Of a DNA stretch of 64,000 bases, positions 3,104-58,968 are shown piece by piece. Source of the stretch: a bacterium (GTDB lineage Bacteria > Electryoneota > JAOADG01); the NCBI GenBank assembly GCA_963681965.1, contig OY820579.1:2816001-2880000 (forward strand). The letters are read 5' to 3'. Positions within the stretch are counted from its first letter, which is position 1, and each line of letters begins with the position of its first letter. The notes under the pieces are model-generated. The model did no database searches. It was not told where the DNA came from and worked only from the letters and a program-made list of their open reading frames with translations. The position numbers were made by a program, and so were the translations under genes.

Positions 3104-5094
3104 AACCAATGAGATTCATTTTATTTATTCTGCTAACAATCGGTATTATGCTGATCCAGTGTACGAAGCTACCTGACCGATCATCAGTATATAATCCATT
3201 TGAAAATGGATCGGAAAATATCTTTCAACCGAGCGTCACTCTTTCAGATGGCGGTGCTTTAATTAGGTGGCAGCGCCCGACAATTGATTTTGAGCGAATA
3301 TTAATTTATCGAGGCGAAAGCCCGATGCTTGACAGTATGCGATTATTGGGTTGGTATCCAATCGATTCGACACGATTTATCGATCGATCGATCATTGATG
3401 GAAATATCTACTATTATGCACTGGTAGGTGAAAATTCCAATGGTCGTACTCATGTCAGTCCATCTATCGCACTTAGATTGTTTCTTCCCATTATCGCGAT
3501 CGATGGCGATAGCAGTTTTACGTATGAGCGAACTGTAGGATTGACAATTATTGCATCGCGTGCGCGATCGATGTGGATTGGCGGGTCCCCAACTGATCCA
3601 AATGCCAGTTGGCAAATGCTCCAGCGCAATGTCCGATATACACTTTCCAATGGTCGCGGGAAGAAGTATATCTACGTAAAATTGGCATTCGTCACAGGTG
3701 ATACTTCCGAATTTATTACCGATTCGATAACTACTGTTCCAGTCACAGGTAGATTTGTTACTACCGATACGGCGCATTATGTAAATTACAATCGAATCAT
3801 TCTGAATATTACGGCATCTGGTGCAACCAAGATGCGGTTCTCAAACGATCCGAATTTTGTTAATGTTCCATTTAAATCATTTGCGACTCGGGACACTTTC
3901 TATTTGAGTGATCCCGACGGATCGAAGCGAATTTTCGGACAATTCGACAATAACTTCGGCGAACCGGTTAATTCCGATACATCGTTACAATTAATATTGG
4001 ATCGGTATGCACATATTAACTCGCTGACAGAGAACTCGAACGGTCGGGCACTGGCTCTTCAACAATCTGTTGCGGTGCGCATGGATGTGGGGGAAATCGG
4101 GGGTAACGCTTGGATACGGATGATCGATTCGCTGGGGAATCGACGCGATAGTATTCCGCTTTACGACCCGCAGAACACCGGAGTTTATACAACTATATAT
4201 CCTGTTTGGTTCGGTCACAATATTTATCGGGGTTACTTAATTGGTAATTACAGCGATCTGGCAGGAAATAATGCGGAAGACACTGCTGGCACAAGGATTA
4301 CAATCAGTCTTGCCAACGATGAAATGGTGCCATTAGCAGGTGGTACATTCATCATGGGTAGCGTCACCGGAACCGATGAAGAACGACCACCGCATTTTGT
4401 TTCGATATCACCATTTCAACTTGATCGATATGAAATCACCAATCGAACATTTGCCATATTTTTGTCATCCGGAACGGGAAATATTCGATACTGGCACCCT
4501 AGTATGAAGATCAGTCGATCTGGCAATACGTGTACTGCGATGCCACAATTCGAAAACCATCCCGTTCGGTTTGTTAGTTATGAAGCTGCTACGGCTTATG
4601 CACAATGGATTGGAAAGCGACTTCCAACCGAAGCTGAGTGGGAATTTGCCGCTCGAGGATCAGCCAACCGAGTTTACCCGTGGGGGAATAGCAGCAATAT
4701 CGGTCGACAAGTGAACGGACACCCTTCCCTCATCACTACACCGCGACCGGATTATTCAATTCGAATCGATTCGACAACTACACCAGTTGGTTTCTACGAT
4801 GGTAATCTAAATCAAAATTATCAAACGAATAATGGTGCTACACCTGAAGGAATTCACGATCTAGCGGGTAATGTCGAGGAGTGGGTTAGCGATTGGTATG
4901 ATTTCTCTTATTATGCCACTTCACCATCCGACAACCCTCGTGGACCAGAAACCGGCGATTACCGTATCGTTCGCGGTGGAAGTTATTTCAATGGCTCATT
5001 CGATCTAAGATCCTCAAAACGTGTTGCGACAATTCCTTCTGCGCAATTTGAAACAATCGGTTTTCGTTGTGCCACATCACGGACGGCAAAATAA
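3100..5094 (+). CDS. Probable lipoprotein with C-terminal FGE-sulfatase (SUMF1/C-type lectin fold) domain
   Basis: ATG 3100 overlaps upstream TGA (ATGA); signal peptide ending LIQC; RLPTEAEWEFAARG, YPWG, DLAGNVEEW, RGGS..IGFRC motifs. Confidence 0.85.
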   Translation: MKPMRFILFILLTIGIMLIQCTKLPDRSSVYNPFENGSENIFQPSVTLSDGGALIRWQRPTIDFERILIYRGESPMLDSMRLLGWYPIDSTRFIDRSIIDGNIYYYALVGENSNGRTHVSPSIALRLFLPIIAIDGDSSFTYERTVGLTIIASRARSMWIGGSPTDPNASWQMLQRNVRYTLSNGRGKKYIYVKLAFVTGDTSEFITDSITTVPVTGRFVTTDTAHYVNYNRIILNITASGATKMRFSNDPNFVNVPFKSFATRDTFYLSDPDGSKRIFGQFDNNFGEPVNSDTSLQLILDRYAHINSLTENSNGRALALQQSVAVRMDVGEIGGNAWIRMIDSLGNRRDSIPLYDPQNTGVYTTIYPVWFGHNIYRGYLIGNYSDLAGNNAEDTAGTRITISLANDEMVPLAGGTFIMGSVTGTDEERPPHFVSISPFQLDRYEITNRTFAIFLSSGTGNIRYWHPSMKISRSGNTCTAMPQFENHPVRFVSYEAATAYAQWIGKRLPTEAEWEFAARGSANRVYPWGNSSNIGRQVNGHPSLITTPRPDYSIRIDSTTTPVGFYDGNLNQNYQTNNGATPEGIHDLAGNVEEWVSDWYDFSYYATSPSDNPRGPETGDYRIVRGGSYFNGSFDLRSSKRVATIPSAQFETIGFRCATSRTAK

Positions 5095-8000
5095 TGATCT
5101 GGGAATTACACGAAGTTCGCATGGTGGGCTTTAAATCGTTTTCACGTCGTACAAAAGTGGGACTTGGAAAAGGTTTAACGGCAATAGTTGGTTCCAATGG
5201 CTGCGGAAAGACCAATATTGCCGATGCCGTTCGCTTTGCGTTAGGCGAAATGCGACCACACCAACTCCGTGTAGAAAATCTTGAAGATGTAATCTTTGCT
5301 GGAACTGCCAATGCAACCCCAGTAGTTGTTGCAGAAGTAACGTTGACTTTTGTCGATCGTGAATCTGACGGTGTCTTTACGATTACCCGTCGCTTGACTC
5401 GAGGTGGTGATACTGAGTACCGAATCGATGGACAACCCGCACGATTAAAGGATCTGCAGCGGAAATTGGAGCAGATCGGAATCGTTTCACAACGCGGTGT
5501 AGTGGTCGAACTGCGACATATGGACGAAGTTCTGATTGACGGTAGTAAACTTCCCCGACTCATGGTCGAAGAAGGGTGCGGAATTGCACCTTTTCTAGAG
5601 CGGCGCAATCATGCCCAATCTAAACTGGATGATGCACTTCGCTCGCTTGAACTGTTAGAACCACGCATTCAACAGATCAATTTAGATCTCGAACGTCTTG
5701 CACAACAAGCACAGCGAGCCAAACGATGGCGAAATACCCGGGATGCGCTCGACCGGGCACGCAACAGCGAGCAGTGGGGGGAAGTGCGCCGCCTTCGAAC
5801 CGAAATCGATTCACTGACAACAAACCTCGAACAACTTCGTGCCGATAATTCCTCCGAAAGCGAATTAGTTCAAGTACAAGCCGATATTGCTCAGACTGAA
5901 GAAGCTTATCAATCGATTCAAAATAATTGGGAAACTATTACTGACGAGCTGTTTGCATTGGGAACCACTCGTGAATCGGCAGCACTCAAGATTAAAGAAT
6001 TCGAATTAAGACGAGTAAAAAACGAAACTCTGATAGAGACTTCGAAGGAAGATTTAAAGCGCATTGATGCCGAATTGTTGGAAATTTCCGAAGAAAAACC
6101 AAATACCCTTATAGAAGAAATTGATCGCGCTAGTAAAGAGCTGAATCGAATCTCGACCGATTTATTGGAGCGTGAAGAATCCTATCGATTGTTATCTAAA
6201 GAACACGAAAATAATCAAAAACTGAAAAATGAATTCGAACAAAACCGTTTTCGAGTACAGAGCACAATCCAAACACTAATCGATTCACGAAATCGACTTT
6301 CGAATCAAATCAACGATCTGTCTCCATTACCAGTCCAAGATCCTGCAATAGGAACTGAGCTAGAACACTTAATTACCGAAAAATTGCAGGAAGAAAAGGA
6401 ATTTCAACTCCTAGCTGATCGACAGAAAACTGCTGTTGCATTACTTGATGAACAGCACCAGTTGTTGATGACAGATTTAGCCAATGTGCGTGGTGATAAA
6501 GGAAGGCAAGAACGTGAGATTCTCTGGATTGAACGAATGCTTGCCGATCGTCCCGACCTATCACAGGAACTGCGTGAATTTATCAAGAAACATGCCCGCG
6601 AAATCCAATTGATTCGAGACGAAGGTAACGACAATGCGATGCTGTTGTATCAAATTGCTTCAACCGATCGCATTATGTTACCGGAAAATCAAGTTTCGGC
6701 AATCTTAACCGATGCTTTAAAGCATAAATTCCGATGTGAATGGGCGATCAACACGGAAACGAAGCTCGTTGAGTTATCGCGATTGCTTCAAGAGAATCCC
6801 CCTCCCGGTGTGGAATGGATTGCTAGTGAAGGTGTTACCCGGGATGCCTCAGGCATTCTTCGAACGATCGGTGATGAAGAAAGCAGTGTTCCAGTTGGTT
6901 TACCAAAGCAATTGTCCTTGTTAAAAGAGAAATTAGCATCTTTACTTCAAAATGAACAAAGAAATGTTGACGAGTTAGCAACCGTATCAGAAAAATTGAA
7001 GGTTGCTCGGGACGATTATCGACTGGCAATCGATCAAATTGCGAAATCGACCATCAAACGATCTGAATTGGAACACCAATTAGTACAATTTCGAGCACAA
7101 GTTGCCGAAACGAATAATAGAAATCTTCTAAGACGTGCCGAACAAGAGCGACTAACCAAAGAAATCAATGATATATCCAGTCAGATCGAGAATTTAAAAT
7201 CCGAAGAAGCTATACTGGTTGCACCAGATTTTCCCGATCTAGTACCGACGTTAACGGATGCTGCAACTCTGATCGAAAATTTAAGAGACGAGAAGAATAA
7301 AACGGAGTATACGCTACATCGTCTGCAAATCGAGTTACGCAATTATGAAATTATTCTGGATCAACGAAAACAAAAACAAAAATTACTTATCCAGCGGCAG
7401 CTCGACAATCGCAAGAAAATTTCAGAGCTATCATCGGAAACTGAAACAATTCAACTTCAGTGGCAGAACACTCGAACAGAATTGACTGTGCTTGAACGGA
7501 AGGAAGCAGAACTTCAAGAACAACGAAACCAAATTGGACCATCGAGAAATCAAATTTCAGAAAAGCTGCAATCGACTCGAGTCAATTTGGAGATAATCAG
7601 AAATCGTGTGGAAGAGTGGCATACTCAGATTGCTCTTCATTCTGAGAAGTTGGTTCAATTGCAATCACAACTGACTGACCGAACACGATCGGCAAATGAA
7701 ACTGGACCGGAACCGAAAGAAACCGTCCGAGTTGGAGCCGAAGAGATTACGCGCCTTGAGCAGCGATTGAAATCATTGGAACCAGTCAATCACTTAGCTG
7801 AACAAGAATACGATACTTTGAAATCCGAAGTAGAGTTTCTTCATACCGAACGCAATCAGATTCGTGAAGCTGCAGAAATTCACCGTAAATCGGTCGATGA
7901 AGCAATTCGGTTTGCTGTCGAAAAGCTTACCGTGGCTAGAGTGCAGATTGAACAGAATTTTACCGATATCATCGCCCGATTGTTTCCGGGTGGCGAAGCT

Positions 8001-47315: not shown

Positions 47316-47365
47316 GTGTCGGGACGACTGGATTTGAACCAGCGACCCCTAGACCCCCAGTCTAG
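47316..47365 (-). repeat. att site: 50-bp duplicate of tRNA-Pro 3' portion
   Basis: Identical to 52638-52687 (GTGTCGGGACGACTGG...CCCCCAGTCTAG). Confidence 0.93.
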
Positions 47366-52565: not shown

Positions 52566-52640
52566 TGAAAACTCCTTTCAGAGATTCAATACCGTTAGCA
52601 GTATTGTGGGTAAAGTGTTAGCACCTCACCCCTACAAGTG

Positions 52641-52714
52641 TCGGGACGACTGGATTTGAACCAGCGACCCCTAGACCCCCAGTCTAGTGCGCTACCAGGC
52701 TGCGCCACGTCCCG
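52641..52714 (-). tRNA. tRNA-Pro(GGG)
   Basis: CGGGACG acceptor stem, D-arm GCGCAGCCTGGTAGCGC, anticodon arm CTAGA-CTGGGGG-TCTAG, T-loop GGTTCAAATCC; CCA not encoded. Confidence 0.97.
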
Positions 52715-53011
52715 TTGTGTTTCAAAATATTTCAATCCAATTCAGCATCTGCGATTGACCATCAAAAGGTATAAAAGCAAGACTGTTTGGGTTTGGACAT
52801 TTTGAACAGATTTCACTGCTTAATCAACCCATTTTATTAGCAGTTTCATTAGCAATTACAACACGTCAACAAATTCGCTAATGGCAGGTTAAACATGCCT
52901 TTCACAGCATCACTGTATAGTTACTGCTGTCAGGAATTCACGAATTTTATTAGCAACTGCATCGTGCAAGATACATTCTTTAACCTTATTAGTCAAGTTT
53001 CTACTGTAGTA

Positions 53012-53048
53012 CTAGGTTTCGCTGGTTCAAATCCAGTCGTCCCGACAC
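53012..53048 (+). repeat. Inverted third copy of the tRNA-Pro 3' att core
   Basis: TCGCTGGTTCAAATCCAGTCGTCCCGACAC (53019-53048) is the exact reverse complement of 52638-52667; CTAGG match extends to 53012 with 2 mismatches. Confidence 0.9.
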
Positions 53049-53194
53049 ATAACAGGGGGAAACAATGCCCCCACCTGTGAAATGGTTTGTGCTATGAACA
53101 ATCAACGAATGATCGGAAAATAGGATTTACTTGACACAAGGTTATAATGTCAAACAATATACTAACACGTCTGTAAAAAAACACCAATCTTCTT

Positions 53195-54070
53195 CTACTG
53201 ATGCGTAGCATCATGCGGAGCATACACGAACTTGATAGAACTGAAAGCTTTGTCAATGGTACGTTGCCTGTAGTCTAGTCGTCGTACAACCTTTTCCCTT
53301 CTACCCAACAACGATTGTTGCAACCATATTCGTTCGACTTGATGCTTGTCTAGACAATGGCGCGCGACCATCGAAACAAAAGCAAGATCGCACCTGGAAT
53401 GATCATTATCATAATCAGAACAATCCCCATTTAACAACTTTGAAAACCGTTCCCCAAACCGATACAGCACAGCTTCAATAACAACACGATCTTCACAGCA
53501 AACAGGACATTCACGATCATTAGTCCATGATTGAACCACTGGAAGTGCTGGTTGATTGCTGATTATGTCGTGCAACTGTTCTTCACAATCCTGGATCATT
53601 AGGGGATATTGATGAAGAAATCTACCTGTCAGTGCAATGAAGCGGGATGTGTTGTAGACTTCGATTGATTGATCGGTAGATAGTTGTATGCGCCGATTGA
53701 TCTTGGTCTTGGTGGTTCGGATAAATGTGTGCAATCCCTTTCCTGATTGCGATACTTCAGTGTATGATTGCAGGTTTTGAATAATGCCTTTGACCCATTG
53801 GTTAATCTTATTGCCCGCATCGATTACATGATCGAAATCTATGGCAGTGAATGGATCGTGTTGGGTTAAGACAAACCCTATTCCATCGTACTTCTGCTTC
53901 ACAAATGTTGCAACACAATCGTGATAACTTGACCATGTTGATGGGTCGTTAATGCGCGCAACATGCCCCGTTACTTGGTAGGGTAACTTCGCTAATCGGG
54001 TTGAAGTTTGTACCAGTTTCCATAGCACAAACTGGTTGAATAACTTCAATTCATCTGGTATTGTAAACAT
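53195..54070 (-). CDS. NrS-1-like primase-polymerase (AEP plus helix bundle, no helicase)
   Basis: IPDEL..NQFVLWK, DPSTW, GIGFVL, IDFDH, YTEVSQSGKGLH, IEVY..RFIALTG, HSRCDLA; GAAAGGA RBS. Confidence 0.8.
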   Translation of the reverse strand: MFTIPDELKLFNQFVLWKLVQTSTRLAKLPYQVTGHVARINDPSTWSSYHDCVATFVKQKYDGIGFVLTQHDPFTAIDFDHVIDAGNKINQWVKGIIQNLQSYTEVSQSGKGLHTFIRTTKTKINRRIQLSTDQSIEVYNTSRFIALTGRFLHQYPLMIQDCEEQLHDIISNQPALPVVQSWTNDRECPVCCEDRVVIEAVLYRFGERFSKLLNGDCSDYDNDHSRCDLAFVSMVARHCLDKHQVERIWLQQSLLGRREKVVRRLDYRQRTIDKAFSSIKFVYAPHDATHQ

Positions 54071-54147
54071 GGCGTTCCTTTCATGAAATGCCCCACAACT
54101 TGTTGCTGTGGGGCTTGCTATCTTCGACTTAACCGAACAACATCGCA

Positions 54148-54660
54148 CTAATCCAATGCAGTTGTAACGAATTCTTCATCTTCGGCAAGTTCCAATAACT
54201 TGCTGAATGTGTTGTTGCGAATTTCATCCAACCACAGCTTTTGTGCTGCCATTAAGATGTCACTACCTGTTGGTTTATCTGCCAACAACCCTTGGTCAAA
54301 CGCTACATCGATATAGCCGACATACCTGCAATCGGATGCCAACCAGTGGGTTAAATTGCTGATGTAACAATTGGGTTCGCATTCCAATAAAATGTCGCGC
54401 ATATCATCTTCATCACTGTCTTCATCCATATCGCAGATATCGGATAAAGTCGAATTCAGTTCTTCGTACACTGCATCATCGGGCAAATATTCACCATCAT
54501 TATGCGCTGCGAAGCAAACATCACGCATCCATTCAGGTGCGTTATCAGCCAAGCAATAAAATTGTTCCCCACTATTTCGGGTGCGTCGTTCCATCATCTC
54601 ATACATCATTTTTGCTAGCTTAATGATCCGCTGTTCTGTGCTTAGTTCGGTGGTTTCCAT
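54148..54660 (-). CDS. Acidic protein resembling T7 Ocr (gp0.3) DNA mimic
   Basis: 40 D/E vs about 13 K/R in 170 aa; C-terminal half aligns by eye to Ocr. Confidence 0.55.
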   Translation of the reverse strand: METTELSTEQRIIKLAKMMYEMMERRTRNSGEQFYCLADNAPEWMRDVCFAAHNDGEYLPDDAVYEELNSTLSDICDMDEDSDEDDMRDILLECEPNCYISNLTHWLASDCRYVGYIDVAFDQGLLADKPTGSDILMAAQKLWLDEIRNNTFSKLLELAEDEEFVTTALD

Positions 54661-54753
54661 GTTAATTCCTTTCAGTTGGTCTAAAACGAAGAAAACCCGT
54701 ATCGCGCATTGCGAACGGGTTGATGGGTTAATGAATAATTCAAATATTTGGGA

Positions 54754-55611
54754 TTAGTAGTCGACCATTACATCGACTGCAAGCTTTCCTTTCAAGCACA
54801 TCGGACAACATGCTTCCAGATATGTATCAAGATTATGCGGTTGCAATAATTTGATAACACCAGAACGCTTTGAATGCCCTGTAAAGGCATCTATTTCTTG
54901 TAGATCGGGAACATTACCACGTTCACCACGAAGGCTTCCTGACCAACTGTAACCCCCATTTTCAGTATCCCAACATGCTTCACATTCACTGCAATAAATC
55001 GATGCGTTCGATAAACCCAGCAGGAAGCTATCAGGTGCGTCGTAACGATCCATTTTAAAGAATGCGGGATAACTGAAACCCCAGCGTGCATCGCATCCGA
55101 CATGGACTTGTAGTCCGAAGATTGCTTCACGGTCGTTACGGGAAGCACCAAACGGCTTGACAAAATAAATGCCATACACGATGTCATTGTGCAGGTGACA
55201 TTGCCCACCCATATTGTAAGTGTACCCACTGGCATAGACATCCACTTCCTGATCAGGAAACTGCAATTCCACAAATTCATTCATCAAATCGGTACTACCA
55301 CTGAAGGTTAATTGCTGTTCATCGCAAGCTGATTGTAATGGTTCGTGAATACCATCGATAAACGCTTCGATGTACTTCAGGGTGTTGACCTGGTAGTTGA
55401 CGTGGACACTTTTATCATGGGCACCACGGTTGTGGGTAACCCATTCCTGTTTCAGTACAAATGGCTGCTTGTCTAATCCCAGGCGTTTGTTGTAATCTGA
55501 TGAATAACCATACGCCCCACCACTGTCGATTATGTTTCGCCCACGCGATGTTGTAAATAGTGTAAGCAGCAATGATCGCGATGACAGTGCGGCTTCGGTT
55601 AATAGTTCCAT
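54754..55611 (-). CDS. Phage-type hypothetical protein (DSGGAYG / QxHxGCDxRxG motifs, C-terminal CxxC pairs)
   Basis: AAAGGGA RBS before ATG 55611; motifs IIDSGGAYG, YTYN, LQVHVGCDARWG, CSEC, CPMC. Confidence 0.65.
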   Translation of the reverse strand: MELLTEAALSSRSLLLTLFTTSRGRNIIDSGGAYGYSSDYNKRLGLDKQPFVLKQEWVTHNRGAHDKSVHVNYQVNTLKYIEAFIDGIHEPLQSACDEQQLTFSGSTDLMNEFVELQFPDQEVDVYASGYTYNMGGQCHLHNDIVYGIYFVKPFGASRNDREAIFGLQVHVGCDARWGFSYPAFFKMDRYDAPDSFLLGLSNASIYCSECEACWDTENGGYSWSGSLRGERGNVPDLQEIDAFTGHSKRSGVIKLLQPHNLDTYLEACCPMCLKGKLAVDVMVDY

Positions 55612-55693
55612 ATTGATCCCTTTGAAGGGGCTAAAATGACAAAAGCCCCTGTCGCGCGAAGCGAAGGGGCTGTGAATTGATTGACACAAATCA

Positions 55694-56035
55694 TTACATC
55701 AGTTCAATGTATTGATGTGCCTGATCTAGATGTTCCAGTAGTTCCGATCGAATAATGCGGGTAACAAAGTTGTCTAACTGTTCAGTAGTGCGCCACAATG
55801 TTATGGCTGCTTCCAAGTGTCGTTGTGCTTCATGGCGATTGCCTTCGATCGTTAGTGTGACATCTTCGATTAACGCACCACAACAATCGCAACAAGGGAC
55901 ATAATCCCATTCACCCTGACCTTCCAGAATGACATTAACTTCATCATCCATGCATTCAATCCCGTCGGGCAAACAGTCAGCACTACAATAGACAGCACCA
56001 TCGAACGTGTACCCGATCACTTCACCGAATGACAT
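55694..56035 (-). CDS. Small acidic Cys-rich phage-type hypothetical protein
   Basis: GAAAGGA RBS before ATG 56035; GYTFDGAVYCSADC and CCDCCG; about 20% D/E. Confidence 0.65.
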   Translation of the reverse strand: MSFGEVIGYTFDGAVYCSADCLPDGIECMDDEVNVILEGQGEWDYVPCCDCCGALIEDVTLTIEGNRHEAQRHLEAAITLWRTTEQLDNFVTRIIRSELLEHLDQAHQYIELM

Positions 56036-56341
56036 ATCTTTTCCTTTCCATAGTGAACCAAGGGTTCGGTTCCTGTTGGGCAAACCTTTCTGGTTTGCGT
56101 GCAGGTAGAAAAAGAAAAAGCCCCTGGTTGGGGCTGTTCATCGTGTCAAGTAGTGATAATGTTCCCTAGAACCTTATGGCGGGGCTCGGAACGTTTTCTA
56201 GAATTTGTTCCAACACTTCAAACCTGGTCTTGACTATTGATCAATTGGATCGACCTGTTAAAGGGATCGATTAATTCTATGGGGGTGGTGGAAGGTAGTT
56301 AAATGAAATACAAGAAGGCTTTACATATTATCGTGATCCCT

Positions 56342-58036
56342 TTATCTGCTTAATATGATATCTTCATGAATAGTGCTATCTTCATAATCAGTTGCATTAT
56401 TAAATGCATCACGTGAATATTGTTTATCTTTCATATAGTTATTGCTTATCGCGTCTGCTTGCTTTTTACAAGCCCCGACCCCATGACCACAATTTGCTAA
56501 CTGTACATCATGACTACCATCCATATGAAGGGAATTATTCCCAAAGCCTCTTGTTTCAATTTCATTGTTAAGATGAATTGAATATTGCGGATGATCGATC
56601 ATCGTTACAGTATGCTTTTTCTGTTTACTGTTCATCGGTTTAATTGCTACTTGAAACGTAAATCTTCTATGTTGGTTCTGGTTCTTCCGATCCTGTTCAA
56701 TGACTTTAAGCTGGTAGACTTTCCAACCAGCACGAATATTCTTTATGAACTGACTGTTGCAAATCGGTATACTGAATGCGATATATCGTTCCCCTTTGAT
56801 CCCCAATAAGTCGCGCATCAGGATATGAACAATCGCTTTCTTTTTATGCACAAATTCAACGGTAGTGTATACTGAATACGTACTATAAACATCACGTTCA
56901 GAAGCATCCGCACAATTCAACAATAAATGTTGATCGCGTCTTACTTCAGTCAATTTCTTCCGCTTATCGAATGCATTCAGTAGATGTCGATTACGATTAC
57001 TTTTGATAACTGACTGCCATTCACCTTTCTGGTAGGTGTCTTCAACTTGTTCGAAGTATCTGTGTAATTCTGAAGTTGTTTTGAATGCAGTTGTTGATAA
57101 ATTCCGCTTCTGTTGAAACATGGTTCGGTATTCATCAATCGTAAGAAAAGTCGGAATACTTACTTGTTTCCGAATAAAATGCTTAATGCCAAAATGCGAA
57201 TAGATTGCAGTTGAATATGTCAATGATTGTTCAGATAGATCAAATCCTGTATGTGTCTTATTGTTCACTTCAATGATCGTTTTTCTTACTTTTCGATGTT
57301 CATTGTTCAAGATGATCCGATCCAATTCACCCTTTGTAACGGTAGCTACTTTACTACCATTATTGCTTGCTTTTGTCGAACTATGGTTGTTACTTTTCTT
57401 CGTCTGCTGTACGGTAGCTTTCTTAACACTAGAACCACTTTCATACCGACCTGAATTTGCTTTCACGATCTTCAAAATCGTTTCAGCTTTATTTAAACAA
57501 TCGTATTCTAACTGATCGTTATCCTTCCCAAAGAAGGGGGCGTATATCGCTGCTGGCAAGCCTTCTTGCTTTTTGGGAAATATGTCTAGACCTAGTTCAT
57601 ACGCATCTGGGACAATTGCACAAATGACATCACGCAACTGATTTGCATCAATCGAACTATCAATCAAAAACCAAAGATGAATACCTAGTCCAGATCGTGA
57701 ATGAACTTCCAGATATTTCAATCCAAGCTGATCCGCAGATTGTTTACTAGCATTAAGTGTCCCGTCAAAATCTGCTAATCCTTTGGAATGACAGCTTGAA
57801 TGATCGAAATCAATCGCAAACCAATTCGACTTGCCTAATTTATCCGCACTACGAAACCCTATCCGACATTTGCCTGCAAGATGTGATTTTACCGCTTCAT
57901 CAATTAGAAAACCAGGAATTTTGCAGTCTGTGGTTCCCATTTTTTTCGTCTTGGGATCACGACTAGTTTCCTTGATAATGCTACCAAGGAACTTTGAATT
58001 CTGCGAAATGTGTTGAAGGATTTCTACTGATTTCAT
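56342..58036 (-). CDS. AEP primase of TOTE-like type fused to an unknown basic C-terminal region
   Basis: HLAG..IG, WFAIDFD, SRSGLGIHLWF, DIFPKKQ motifs in the first ~170 aa. Confidence 0.65.
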   Translation of the reverse strand: MKSVEILQHISQNSKFLGSIIKETSRDPKTKKMGTTDCKIPGFLIDEAVKSHLAGKCRIGFRSADKLGKSNWFAIDFDHSSCHSKGLADFDGTLNASKQSADQLGLKYLEVHSRSGLGIHLWFLIDSSIDANQLRDVICAIVPDAYELGLDIFPKKQEGLPAAIYAPFFGKDNDQLEYDCLNKAETILKIVKANSGRYESGSSVKKATVQQTKKSNNHSSTKASNNGSKVATVTKGELDRIILNNEHRKVRKTIIEVNNKTHTGFDLSEQSLTYSTAIYSHFGIKHFIRKQVSIPTFLTIDEYRTMFQQKRNLSTTAFKTTSELHRYFEQVEDTYQKGEWQSVIKSNRNRHLLNAFDKRKKLTEVRRDQHLLLNCADASERDVYSTYSVYTTVEFVHKKKAIVHILMRDLLGIKGERYIAFSIPICNSQFIKNIRAGWKVYQLKVIEQDRKNQNQHRRFTFQVAIKPMNSKQKKHTVTMIDHPQYSIHLNNEIETRGFGNNSLHMDGSHDVQLANCGHGVGACKKQADAISNNYMKDKQYSRDAFNNATDYEDSTIHEDIILSR

Positions 58037-58485
58037 TTGCCATACCTAATTGAAAAACGACTAACATGTAGTCACAATCGCGATACGACAGAAATGAATA
58101 TTGTTATAGTTTTGTTTCAGCAGTTGCTTTGGGAATGGTTGTGCAGCATTTGTGGGGGTTGATTTCTTTCAGGTTCTTTCAACCAAGAACTTGATCGAAC
58201 TTAGCACACTTTCAAGTAGGTGATTATTCATGCCCCATTGGGCATGAACTAATCGAAGTAATGCGATTGCATCTGTACGCGAATGATTGATGCATTATTT
58301 CTTCTGAAGCTGAATTCAAAAATACGACTTCAAATACACATTAATTGCTAACTTCTTAAATATTATGCATTAATATTAATTCAACCATTAAGATACGCAT
58401 TTATATCACATTAAATCAATAAGATAATACATTGCGATTATTACAAAGACCCATGATTGCATAAACGACTTTGGACACTGCCTAC

Positions 58486-58571
58486 TTTTTTCTTTCTTTT
58501 CTTTCTTTATATATTTCTTTCTTTTCTTTCTTTTTCTTTTGGGAAAAAGAAAGAAAAGTTCTTTAAAGAAC
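58486..58571. repeat. Polypyrimidine tract with 16-bp perfect inverted repeat and 14-bp palindrome
   Basis: CTTTTCTTTCTTTTTC-N6-GAAAAAGAAAGAAAAG (58521-58558); GTTCTTTAAAGAAC (58558-58571). Confidence 0.75.
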
Positions 58572-58968
58572 TTCAAAGAACAACTGTACGAATTAATAAT
58601 AACTTAAGAAATTATTCATCTACTTGTTATCTGAATACTACCTTCCCATCATTGACAACTTCTTATTAATTAAAGATATTCATCAATTTCATTGTCTGGT
58701 TGCGAATACTTGTCCATCAAATCTTCGCGATTTGACCAGGGTATTCAAATCAGAATACCGTTATTTGCGTCAAAAAGACACCGCCAAGACAATTAGTTTG
58801 CTTACGTGATATATTTTAAGGGCAAGCATAAAAAACGTCTTAGGATGTCATGTTGCGAATAAAAGTAATCTTTTGGGGATCACATTTTTGGTATAATCTG
58901 TTCAAGCAATACACTATCCCTGTAATTAACAATAAGATAAGTATAAGAAAACAATAAAATGTCAGATG

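Follow-up and report, generated by a model that had tools for sequence, protein, structure and literature searches.

What do GC-rich hairpins do when one of them stands in front of each of four consecutive genes in the replication module of an integrated island? The question is raised by the window analysed here (the whole stretch of 64,000 nucleotides), for which a preliminary description had proposed that such hairpins form a conserved RNA or ssDNA switch metering each gene. In the account given below, the hairpins are probably intercistronic intrinsic (Rho-independent) terminators, serving as insulators or attenuators in the island replication module. That termination occurs, that it is partial, and why this should be so, we infer from the sequence and its comparison with other sites.

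The module is part of a ~17.8-kb island integrated at tRNA-Pro, with two integrases nearby and adjoining tRNA-Pro repeats. The genes and hairpins are collected in Table 1. The AEP-TOTE primase-domain gene after which the hairpins start also gives a weak PADLOC PrimPol match (E 3.8e-7), which is the sole PADLOC output, and the primase-polymerase gene g4 has an NrS-1 HBD match that falls under the Pfam cut-off. For g4 the ATG start is favoured over an upstream GTG because of its Shine-Dalgarno sequence and the range of the PHROG alignment. No solved-structure relative of g2 was found, and in a protein atlas this protein reaches only unnamed clusters with low scores. Of all Rfam families, only tRNA reaches gathering level in the window (a MAT2A-like match with an E of 0.63 was set aside as chance); comparison of the stretch with phage records gave no DNA similarity, and contigs from four DNA runs yielded only identical sequence in fragmented assemblies.

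Table 1. Genes, hairpins and tail elements of the replication module (positions in the window; SD, Shine-Dalgarno sequence).
Feature	Position	Strand	Remarks
AEP-TOTE primase-domain gene	56342-58036	-	Pfam PF22548, E 7.4e-11; hairpin run starts after it
H1	56119-56135	-	6-bp GC stem, 5-nt loop; listed as terminator-like
H1 U-tract	56103-56118	-	long; whole H1 feature 56103-56135
g1	56035-55694	-	113 aa, Cys-rich, no family match
H2	55644-55671	-	terminator hairpin with bulge: stems of 7 and 4 bp separated by 1 unpaired base, loop of 5 nt
H2 tail, U-rich tract ending UUUUAG	55631-55643	-	by reading; whole tail 55617-55643
H2 tail, 9-nt copy of hairpin 5' arm	55624-55632	-	
H2 tail, SD AAAGGGA	55617-55623	-	
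g2	55611-54754	-	285 aa, phrog_11344; gene accompanied by the leader family
H3	54694-54721	-	H2 paralogue, identical architecture
H3 tail, U-rich tract ending UUUUAG	54681-54693	-	by reading; whole tail 54666-54693
H3 tail, SD GAAAGGAA	54666-54673	-	
g3	54660-54148	-	170 aa, acidic, no family match
H4	54090-54114	-	10-bp hairpin, weak U-tract; whole feature 54075-54114
SD GAAAGGAA downstream of H4	54075-54082	-	
g4, primase-polymerase	54070-53195	-	last in the run; phrog_13901 E 9.7e-59, phrog_1829 E 2.9e-58
Final terminator-like hairpin downstream of g4	53055-53072	-	

The four hairpins of the preliminary description are confirmed, with coordinates counted on the plus strand and the genes reading on the minus strand, and RNA folding reproduces the bulged fold given there for H2 and H3: on the mRNA strand the bulge is a single unpaired base on the 3' side, found in the MFE and centroid folds alike, with a predicted ΔG of −18.0 kcal/mol for H2 and −14.9 kcal/mol for H3. 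Compared with 200 shuffles, the segment z-scores of H2, H3, H4 and H1 are −1.85, −2.77, −3.13 and −2.94, with 8, 1, 0 and 1 shuffles, respectively, scoring as well. Along the spacer mRNA, the stop codon is followed by a GC-rich stem-loop, then by a U-rich tract, a Shine-Dalgarno sequence and the next ATG, and the hairpin is separated from this ATG by 32 nt in H2, 33 nt in H3, 19 nt in H4 and 83 nt in H1. The near-ATG position of the bulged pair thus agrees with the earlier reading, as do the ribosome sites of the AAAGG type, which take the form (G/C)AAAGG(A/G) in front of all four genes, and the CTAAAA motif, found at 54681-54686 and 55631-55636 and in each case starting 13 nt from the start of the bulged hairpin. 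The word "leader" chosen for these elements is a fair one for the g2 copies discussed below. On the minus strand, the hairpins also follow the stop codon of the preceding gene (by 22 nt for H2, 32 nt for H3 and 33 nt for H4). Two short repeats run through the series: H1 and H2 have an 11-nt string in common, spanning the 3' arm and the U-tract (repeat family D13), and a 9-mer at the Shine-Dalgarno sequence of H3 recurs before g4 (repeat family D3).

The U-tract that had been placed after the hairpin on the mRNA strand starts directly at the stem base, on the sense strand, in H1, H2, H3 and all family copies, and is weak in H4; by reading, there is no T-tract after the stem on the opposite strand. 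This consistency points to RNA as the form in which the hairpins act. It is also important to consider the alternative partner that had been assigned to the 3' arm. Such a partner is real at 55626-55632 (AGGGGCT), but it is unique to H2, where in the local fold the copy of the 5' arm pairs with part of the Shine-Dalgarno sequence.

To place the hairpins among terminators, we compare them with sites of the same general shape in the host and elsewhere. Known intercistronic intrinsic terminators have a GC-rich stem-loop and a sense U-tract just past a stop codon, with the next gene close by and lacking a promoter of its own, as is the case here; what differs is that here they occupy four consecutive junctions and that a single leader, also found with g2 elsewhere, is present twice among them. 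Among 1077 host hairpin-plus-T-tail sites after stop codons, the ΔG of H2 ranks at the 29th percentile and that of H3 at the 50th, and in both the initial 12 bases of the tail include 8 T (host median 6). Of 471 compact strong host sites, 147 have imperfect arms and 65 have a loop of 5 nt, and a Shine-Dalgarno sequence with a start codon follows within 60 nt at 61 of the 1077 sites. In unrelated bacteria, at least 119 loci carry the stem pattern with its T-tail, as do 4 viral contigs, and among the matches listed, 96 of 142 (123 loci) lie within 120 nt past the end of an ORF of at least 80 aa. When 84 of these 123 loci were scored with R1, the covariance model built for the leader, the unrelated sites reached up to 35.8 bits. 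The stem itself, as judged from these matches, is generic, and the hairpins would form a small new family of a known kind, intrinsic terminators. H4 may not terminate at all, its U-tract being poor.

The condition of H4, with a strong stem and a U-tract that is nearly absent, would be expected if the hairpins served mainly in RNA stability or processing, such that the polycistronic mRNA is cut in the AU-rich tract after each hairpin, the fragment upstream is shielded by the hairpin against 3' exonucleases, and segment stability rather than termination sets expression. Intercistronic stabiliser hairpins are known, and the conserved AU-rich UUUUAG segment after the stems would suit an endonuclease. 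However, a U-tract directly at the stem base in H1, H2, H3 and the family is the specific signature of termination, and unrelated bacteria place the same stem after the ends of ORFs, so that we regard a main role in stability as quite improbable.

If the hairpins are terminators, it must be asked how the genes behind them are transcribed. The promoter scan finds none between hairpin and ATG, and the 32–33 nt that separate the two in H2 and H3 leave no room for one, from which it follows that the downstream genes would be transcribed only by read-through. Host promoters at tRNA genes are sigma-70-like as judged by eye, and the scan overall returned 42 sites vs. 47.4 ± 6.8 in shuffles, with terminator-like sites counted at 27 vs. 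11.7 ± 3.8. A sigma-70-like 9/12 match ~13 nt upstream of the hairpin at one locus of the related genome was rejected as a family feature, the other copies having nothing comparable. Terminators whose predicted strength is average or better would leave g2 to g4, the primase-polymerase included, short of transcript when no promoter follows them, and we therefore assume either leakiness or antitermination. As a test of its switch, the preliminary description had named plain terminators with separate promoters and an absence of homologues with the bulged structure; the elements are indeed terminator-like and have homologues that lack the bulge, whereas separate promoters were not found.

H3 resembles H2 much more closely than other host terminator-like sites do. 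The bulged pattern occurs exactly 2 times in the 4.24-Mb genome (0 times for the reversed control pattern), and when H2 is compared with 470 other compact terminator-like sites of the host, H3 ranks first, with a score of 18 compared to 6 for the next site and an identity of 71% over 42 nt. As had been noticed, the two copies differ by compensatory changes, which affect 2 of the 11 stem pairs and leave none broken. On this evidence H2 and H3 are taken to be true paralogues, and are read as two copies of one ~75-nt terminator-plus-ribosome-site leader consisting of the stem, a U-tract ending UUUUAG, a CCAAC-type spacer and GAAAGGA.

A search with R1, in line with the covariance-model search that had been suggested, shows that homologues exist: there are 5 further leader copies, 1 in the same genome and 4 in one related genome. 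For reference, H2, a training sequence, scores 66.2 bits and H1 scores 20.2 bits. The leader precedes g2 in 4 of the 4 copies that retain a 5' end, and at three leader-g2 places (the second locus in the same genome, G003 contig 71 and G003 contig 64) there is no gene upstream. Because of this, an insulator or attenuator fits and a simple end-of-gene terminator does not. Within the window the module precedes g3 as well as g2, and g2 with the module is found in 4 contexts. It seems that the leader travels with g2 in a small element family and was copied in front of g3. Whole-genome searches find g2 in 2 of 61 genomes by protein and in 2 of 79 by phrog_11344, a large protein database holds one g2 homologue, and searches of genome, viral and metagenome contigs with the single protein or a 2-sequence alignment gave no further relatives. 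A repeated 90–140-nt non-coding block beside the related-genome hairpins is absent here and so does not belong to the element.

The conservation within the family describes what is being maintained. The stem and the U-tract on the gene strand are kept in 7 of 7 copies, and in an alignment of the 7 related copies, made to the structure of the model itself, 97.3% of cells are paired and both bases have changed at 3 of the 11 stem pairs; given such compensatory changes, selection appears to keep the stem. The conserved bulge on which the preliminary description had placed weight is present in 2 of the 7 copies, namely the window pair, and loops vary. Its regulated switch finds no support here: RNAalifold on 5 extended leaders gives the terminator helix only and the loops are not conserved. 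The leader has no Rfam match, and no conserved antiterminator or anti-Shine-Dalgarno helix is present in the 5 leaders. Metering of the downstream genes, as a result of partial termination, is plausible.

The movement of the module with g2 makes it necessary to ask whether the hairpins act as DNA, that is, as ssDNA priming sites, ssDNA promoters or points of cassette exchange (attC-like or PeSL-like). The hairpins sit between two primase-type genes, the four gene contexts of g2 and its leader include a position beside serine-recombinase fragments in the related genome, H3 resembles an H2 copy set before another gene, and a 9-nt direct repeat adjoins H2. These features are outweighed, in our view, by the small size of the hairpins (28 nt), the absence of −35/−10 elements, the absence of attC core motifs (by reading) and the absence of such a repeat family elsewhere in the genome, and the strand-specific U-tract would be left unexplained; we consider a role as DNA very unlikely. 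Hairpin size and the missing promoter boxes argue in particular against an ssDNA promoter or an ssi site.

The SAS/ESAS elements of Cluster K mycobacteriophages are reportedly ribosome-site motifs repeated before several genes, sometimes with inverted repeats nearby, and differ from the present elements in that they are said to have no U-tracts and not to be terminator-shaped. Integron attC sites measure about 55–140 nt, carry conserved core sites and need the integron integrase; the likeness is that they, too, are imperfectly paired hairpins that lie between gene cassettes and contain unpaired bases, whereas the hairpins here span 17–28 nt and neither core sites (by reading) nor an integron integrase were seen. 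Closer are the PeSLs of T4-type phages, which PMC2839356 and PMC4122927 describe as repeated intergenic modules of ~100 bp or less that contain a terminator stem-loop and end in a Shine-Dalgarno sequence and start codon. As in our case, they lie beside small genes of unknown function, with one module standing before different genes; in contrast, the present elements have 32–33 nt between hairpin and ATG and no promoter by scan, and no recombination products were seen here.

Read-through could also be supplied on demand rather than by passive leak. In such a case RNA polymerase would become resistant to termination at induction through a protein or RNA of the island, and a real regulatory circuit would act on the leader. 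Analogues of this arrangement are lambda Q at tR', canT of Tn916 and conAn of pLS20. Several terminators do lie inside one transcription unit (H1 to H4, together with a post-integrase hairpin in L008), so that four to five of them stand in series, with no internal promoters, ahead of a replication gene. The leader is conserved 5' of g2 in all four copies with a 5' end, and both the structured 300-nt spacer around H1 and the 930-nt AT-rich non-coding region upstream could hold a factor. PMC11658703 (Tn916 T1/canT) and PMC8955417 (pLS20 conAn) describe a similar logic in other mobile elements, with terminators before or inside a replication or transfer operon of an integrated element that has no internal promoters. 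Compared with these elements, the present locus differs by having no recognised antiterminator, by lying in another, little-studied phylum and by carrying primases instead of conjugation genes. The absence of an antiterminator recognised by Pfam, PHROGs, PADLOC or Rfam counts against bypass, as do the lack of a family for g1 to g3 in Pfam, PHROGs and PADLOC and the conservation of nothing beyond the terminator, and we judge it unlikely.

It is possible to go further and to picture the ~75-nt leader as a portable promoter-less cassette that moves with accessory genes, is opened by island antitermination upon excision or induction, and serves as a recombination joint as well. We give this proposal a rather small chance. 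If true, the replication genes would be silent in the chromosome and fire only on mobilisation, and a circuit like those of Tn916 and pLS20 would exist in an uncultured, little-studied phylum.

Returning to intercistronic termination, which we prefer, the genes downstream of each hairpin would be supplied by RNA polymerase reading through it. The serial insulators or attenuators would hold the island replication genes low while the island is integrated, with expression stepped down along the operon by successive hairpins, and the hairpin remaining at each 3' end probably protects the upstream mRNA too. This seems reasonable in light of multiple terminators reported within operons of mobile elements (PMC8955417) and of a terminator insulating the replication genes of integrated Tn916 (PMC11658703).

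Read in this way, the hairpins are routine gene punctuation, which helps to annotate the operon structure of the island and its likely silence while integrated. If read-through were regulated, the locus would hold a termination/antitermination circuit over primase-based replication in an integrative element of a poorly known phylum, and would be a second case, besides the T4-type PeSLs, of small regulatory cassettes spreading between genes.

All genes around the four hairpins (H1 to H4) lie on the minus strand, a point absent from the preliminary description, and read as mRNA every spacer has the same order of elements: a stop codon, 22–33 nt, a GC-rich hairpin, a U-rich tract, a Shine-Dalgarno sequence and the ATG. 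This is how an intrinsic terminator is laid out. The hairpin positions described previously hold for all four (see table), as do the CTAAAA motifs, the AAAGG ribosome sites, a second AGGGGCT at 55626–55632 and the gap from hairpin to ATG, which is 32 nt at H2 and 33 nt at H3. CTAAAA corresponds to the distal end of the U-rich tract (UUUUAG on the mRNA), and the AAAGG-type site is the normal Shine-Dalgarno for this host, whose 16S rRNA terminates in CCUCCUUUCU and in which AGGAG, AAGGA and AAAGG are enriched ahead of starts. Upstream TTG or GTG starts from the ORF list, which would put H2 and H4 within coding sequence, were rejected; the ATG starts are preferred because each has a strong Shine-Dalgarno, because a 71%-identical homologue of g2 begins at the same position, and because PHROG profiles align from residues 2–3 of g4.

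Features of the hairpin operon and of the related loci discussed in the text
Feature	Coordinates	Strand	Description
tRNA-Pro(GGG) gene	52640-52714		
AEP-type primase-domain gene	58036-56342	minus	precedes g1-g4
H1	56135 to 56119	minus	6-bp stem (RNA fold)
g1	56035-55694	minus	113 aa, no family
H2	55671 to 55644	minus	7-bp stem, 1 unpaired base on 3' side, 4-bp stem, 5-nt loop
g2	55611-54754	minus	285 aa, phrog_11344, function unknown
H3	54721 to 54694	minus	architecture as H2: 7 bp, 1 unpaired 3'-side base, 4 bp, 5-nt loop
g3	54660-54148	minus	170 aa, no family
H4	54114 to 54090	minus	10-bp stem (RNA fold)
g4	54070-53195	minus	primase-polymerase, phrog_13901 E 9.7e-59
Second leader hairpin and first ~30 codons of g2-like gene	G000:C1:2153289-2153460 (L021 5290-5460)		own genome (G000)

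The products of g1, g2 and g3 (54148–56035) gave no match to Pfam, PADLOC or solved-structure families; the first two are Cys-rich and the third is very acidic. The 10-mer holding the g2 ribosome site (AAAGGGATCA on the mRNA strand) is present at 55614–55623, 56259–56268 and 56335–56344; one of the additional copies coincides with the stop codon of the AEP gene and the other, perfect but inverted, is 66 nt from it, which may reflect chance or a binding site.

When the coding strand is folded as RNA, the bulged form of H2 and H3 appears in both the minimum-energy and the centroid structures. All four segments outperform shuffled sequence in folding: relative to 200 shuffles the z-scores are −1.85 (H2), −2.77 (H3), −3.13 (H4) and −2.94 (H1), with 8, 1, 0 and 1 shuffles, respectively, folding as well. 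In the 4.24-Mb genome, H2 and H3 are the only matches to a strict pattern describing the bulged form, and the reversed control has none.

To place these hairpins among those of the host, the whole genome was scanned for hairpins with ΔG ≤ −9 and a T-rich tail, set against a crude gene call. There are 1077 distinct sites of this kind no more than 120 nt past a same-strand stop, and 61 of them have a Shine-Dalgarno and start codon within 60 nt behind, so compact stop-terminator-start junctions occur around the whole chromosome. Within this terminator-like set H2 and H3 are ordinary: their ΔG values fall at the 29th and 50th percentiles, their tails carry 8 T in 12 bases (host median 6), and compact strong host sites include ones with unpaired arm bases (147/471) and with 5-nt loops (65/471). 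What is unusual is the clustering: nowhere else did the scan show a clean case in which successive junctions all have such a site; counting H1 and H4, a hairpin stands at four successive junctions.

When H2 is compared with 470 other compact terminator-like sites of the host, H3 is by a wide margin the closest match (score 18, the next scoring 6), with 71% identity over hairpin and tail. The two stem differences between them are both double and pair-preserving, as the preliminary description had noted, and H2 and H3 are related by descent. The relationship extends to other copies of g2, a rare gene: searches of 61 and of 79 genomes of the phylum each turned it up in 2, and three contig collections gave no hit. 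In the single related genome, G003, g2 is complete on contig 71 and broken on contig 64, and the own genome has an additional 5' fragment at ~2.153 Mb (15/27 residues identical) that an IS element truncates. This element encodes a transposase with rve, rve_3 and HTH_21, and its end sequence is present in many genomic copies. A related hairpin, U-tract and ribosome site (the leader) precedes all four g2 copies, 32–89 nt ahead of the ATG, and three of these four have no upstream gene. In G003, the hairpin behind g2 has a different sequence and a different gene after it, and the later genes of that element overlap without any hairpins; g2 there adjoins a gene with an LPD28 domain, typical of mobile-element polyvalent proteins.

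A covariance model (R1) built from four copies of the leader recovered the fifth g2-linked copy and two further copies in G003, and nothing above 36 bits outside these two genomes among 79 genomes of the phylum. In the seven copies 97.3% of stem cells pair, 3 of 11 pairs are changed on both sides, and the covariation score is reached by 0 of 500 shuffles, for an alignment that is fitted to the model and sequences that are related. The two weaker members (36.6 and 37.8 bits) score like unrelated terminators, which reach 35.8 bits (84 of 123 listed loci scored), and it is therefore the flanks and the g2 fragment, rather than the hairpin, that support their membership. The stem itself is generic: the pattern of stem and T-tail start is matched by at least 119 genomic loci from unrelated phyla and by 4 viral contigs, and of the 142 matches listed for these 123 loci, 96 are no more than 120 nt past the end of an ORF of at least 80 aa and 19 have a Shine-Dalgarno and start within 70 nt behind.

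A conserved non-coding block of 90–140 nt (75–83% identical), absent from the own genome, adjoins leader hairpins on three contigs of the related genome (L006 8290–8420, L015 700–790, L022 4430–4520). One leader copy carries an insertion at L007 5650–5700, where a tandem pair of 25-nt units, both small hairpins, separates the terminator from the g2 fragment's ribosome site. Also in the related genome, the initial 10 codons of a g1-like gene (L006 5884–5912; 29 nt at 90% identity) lie directly against a large serine recombinase that lacks its N-terminal part (4175–5755), and on another contig a g2 fragment continues into the C-terminal portion of a recombinase of this kind (L007 6000–6790). Both junctions look like recombination scars.

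The preliminary description took the hairpins, two of them bulged and covarying, for a conserved RNA or ssDNA switch, and this covarying bulged switch is not supported. The bulge is present only in the two window copies of the seven; in three of the others an additional A supplies a partner for the "bulged" base, a further copy shows an internal mismatch in its place and another has lost the inner stem. It is thus a shared 1-nt deletion marking H2 and H3 as closest mutual relatives, and it is not a functional hallmark. The loop sequence differs in each copy. RNAalifold on five extended leaders gives the terminator helix and no competing helix; the alternative partner proposed for the hairpin 3' arm does exist in H2 and is unique to it. 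A riboswitch or other Rfam family (no Rfam match) and an attC site were also rejected as identities.

The operon belongs to a mobile region. The tRNA-Pro 3' half (50 nt, 52638–52687) is repeated exactly at 47316–47365, its 5' half with 5 upstream bases (52670–52719) is repeated exactly at 70543–70592 (L008 6543–6592), just beyond the window, and a tyrosine integrase adjoins each repeat, which places the hairpin operon in a ~17.8 kb island (52720–70542). The island holds an integrase, a type I restriction-modification system, several unknown genes, the AEP gene, g1–g3 and the primase-polymerase; an additional hairpin with an eight-U run lies ~28 nt ahead of the ATG of the gene following the integrase. 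The tRNA gene is common to this island and one of ~5.3 kb, each with its own integrase; the smaller is flanked by the perfect 50-nt repeat of the 3' half, and as the larger is flanked by that of the 5' half, its integration appears to have been into the 5' part of the gene. At 53012–53048, just past the operon's last terminator, 37 nt of the tRNA 3' end are present in inverted orientation (95% identical), which may be a trace of older integration or inversion. The 930 nt that lie upstream of the AEP gene (58037–58968) are AT-rich and non-coding, contain many GAAAGAAAAG-like repeats as well as a palindrome of 17 bp (58521–58558), and could be a replication origin or control region of the island.

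Mobile-element operons with several internal terminators have been described (PMC8955417), and in integrated Tn916 a terminator insulates the replication genes, and an antiterminator encoded by the element overrides it (PMC11658703); these are precedent for a transcription unit punctuated by terminators. The closest named analogue is PeSL of T4-type phages, a repeated terminator and ribosome-site cassette before several small unknown genes (PMC2839356, PMC4122927). Its defining promoter is absent at the window hairpins, so they are not members of that family.

Host tRNA genes have sigma-70-like promoters, judged by eye. A consensus scan found terminator-like sites enriched over shuffles, no excess of promoter-like sites overall, and no promoter between any hairpin and its ATG, a space of only 19–33 nt at H2–H4. 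The simplest reading of the sequence is that of one transcription unit punctuated by intrinsic terminators, which would insulate and attenuate the genes behind them, with the primase-polymerase last, while polymerase would read through the hairpins by passive leak or in a regulated manner. The proposed metering of each gene is in this sense plausible, with no switch behind it supported. We file the hairpins as a putative new small family of ordinary intrinsic terminators, which within a mobile island may serve as insulators or attenuators between cistrons.
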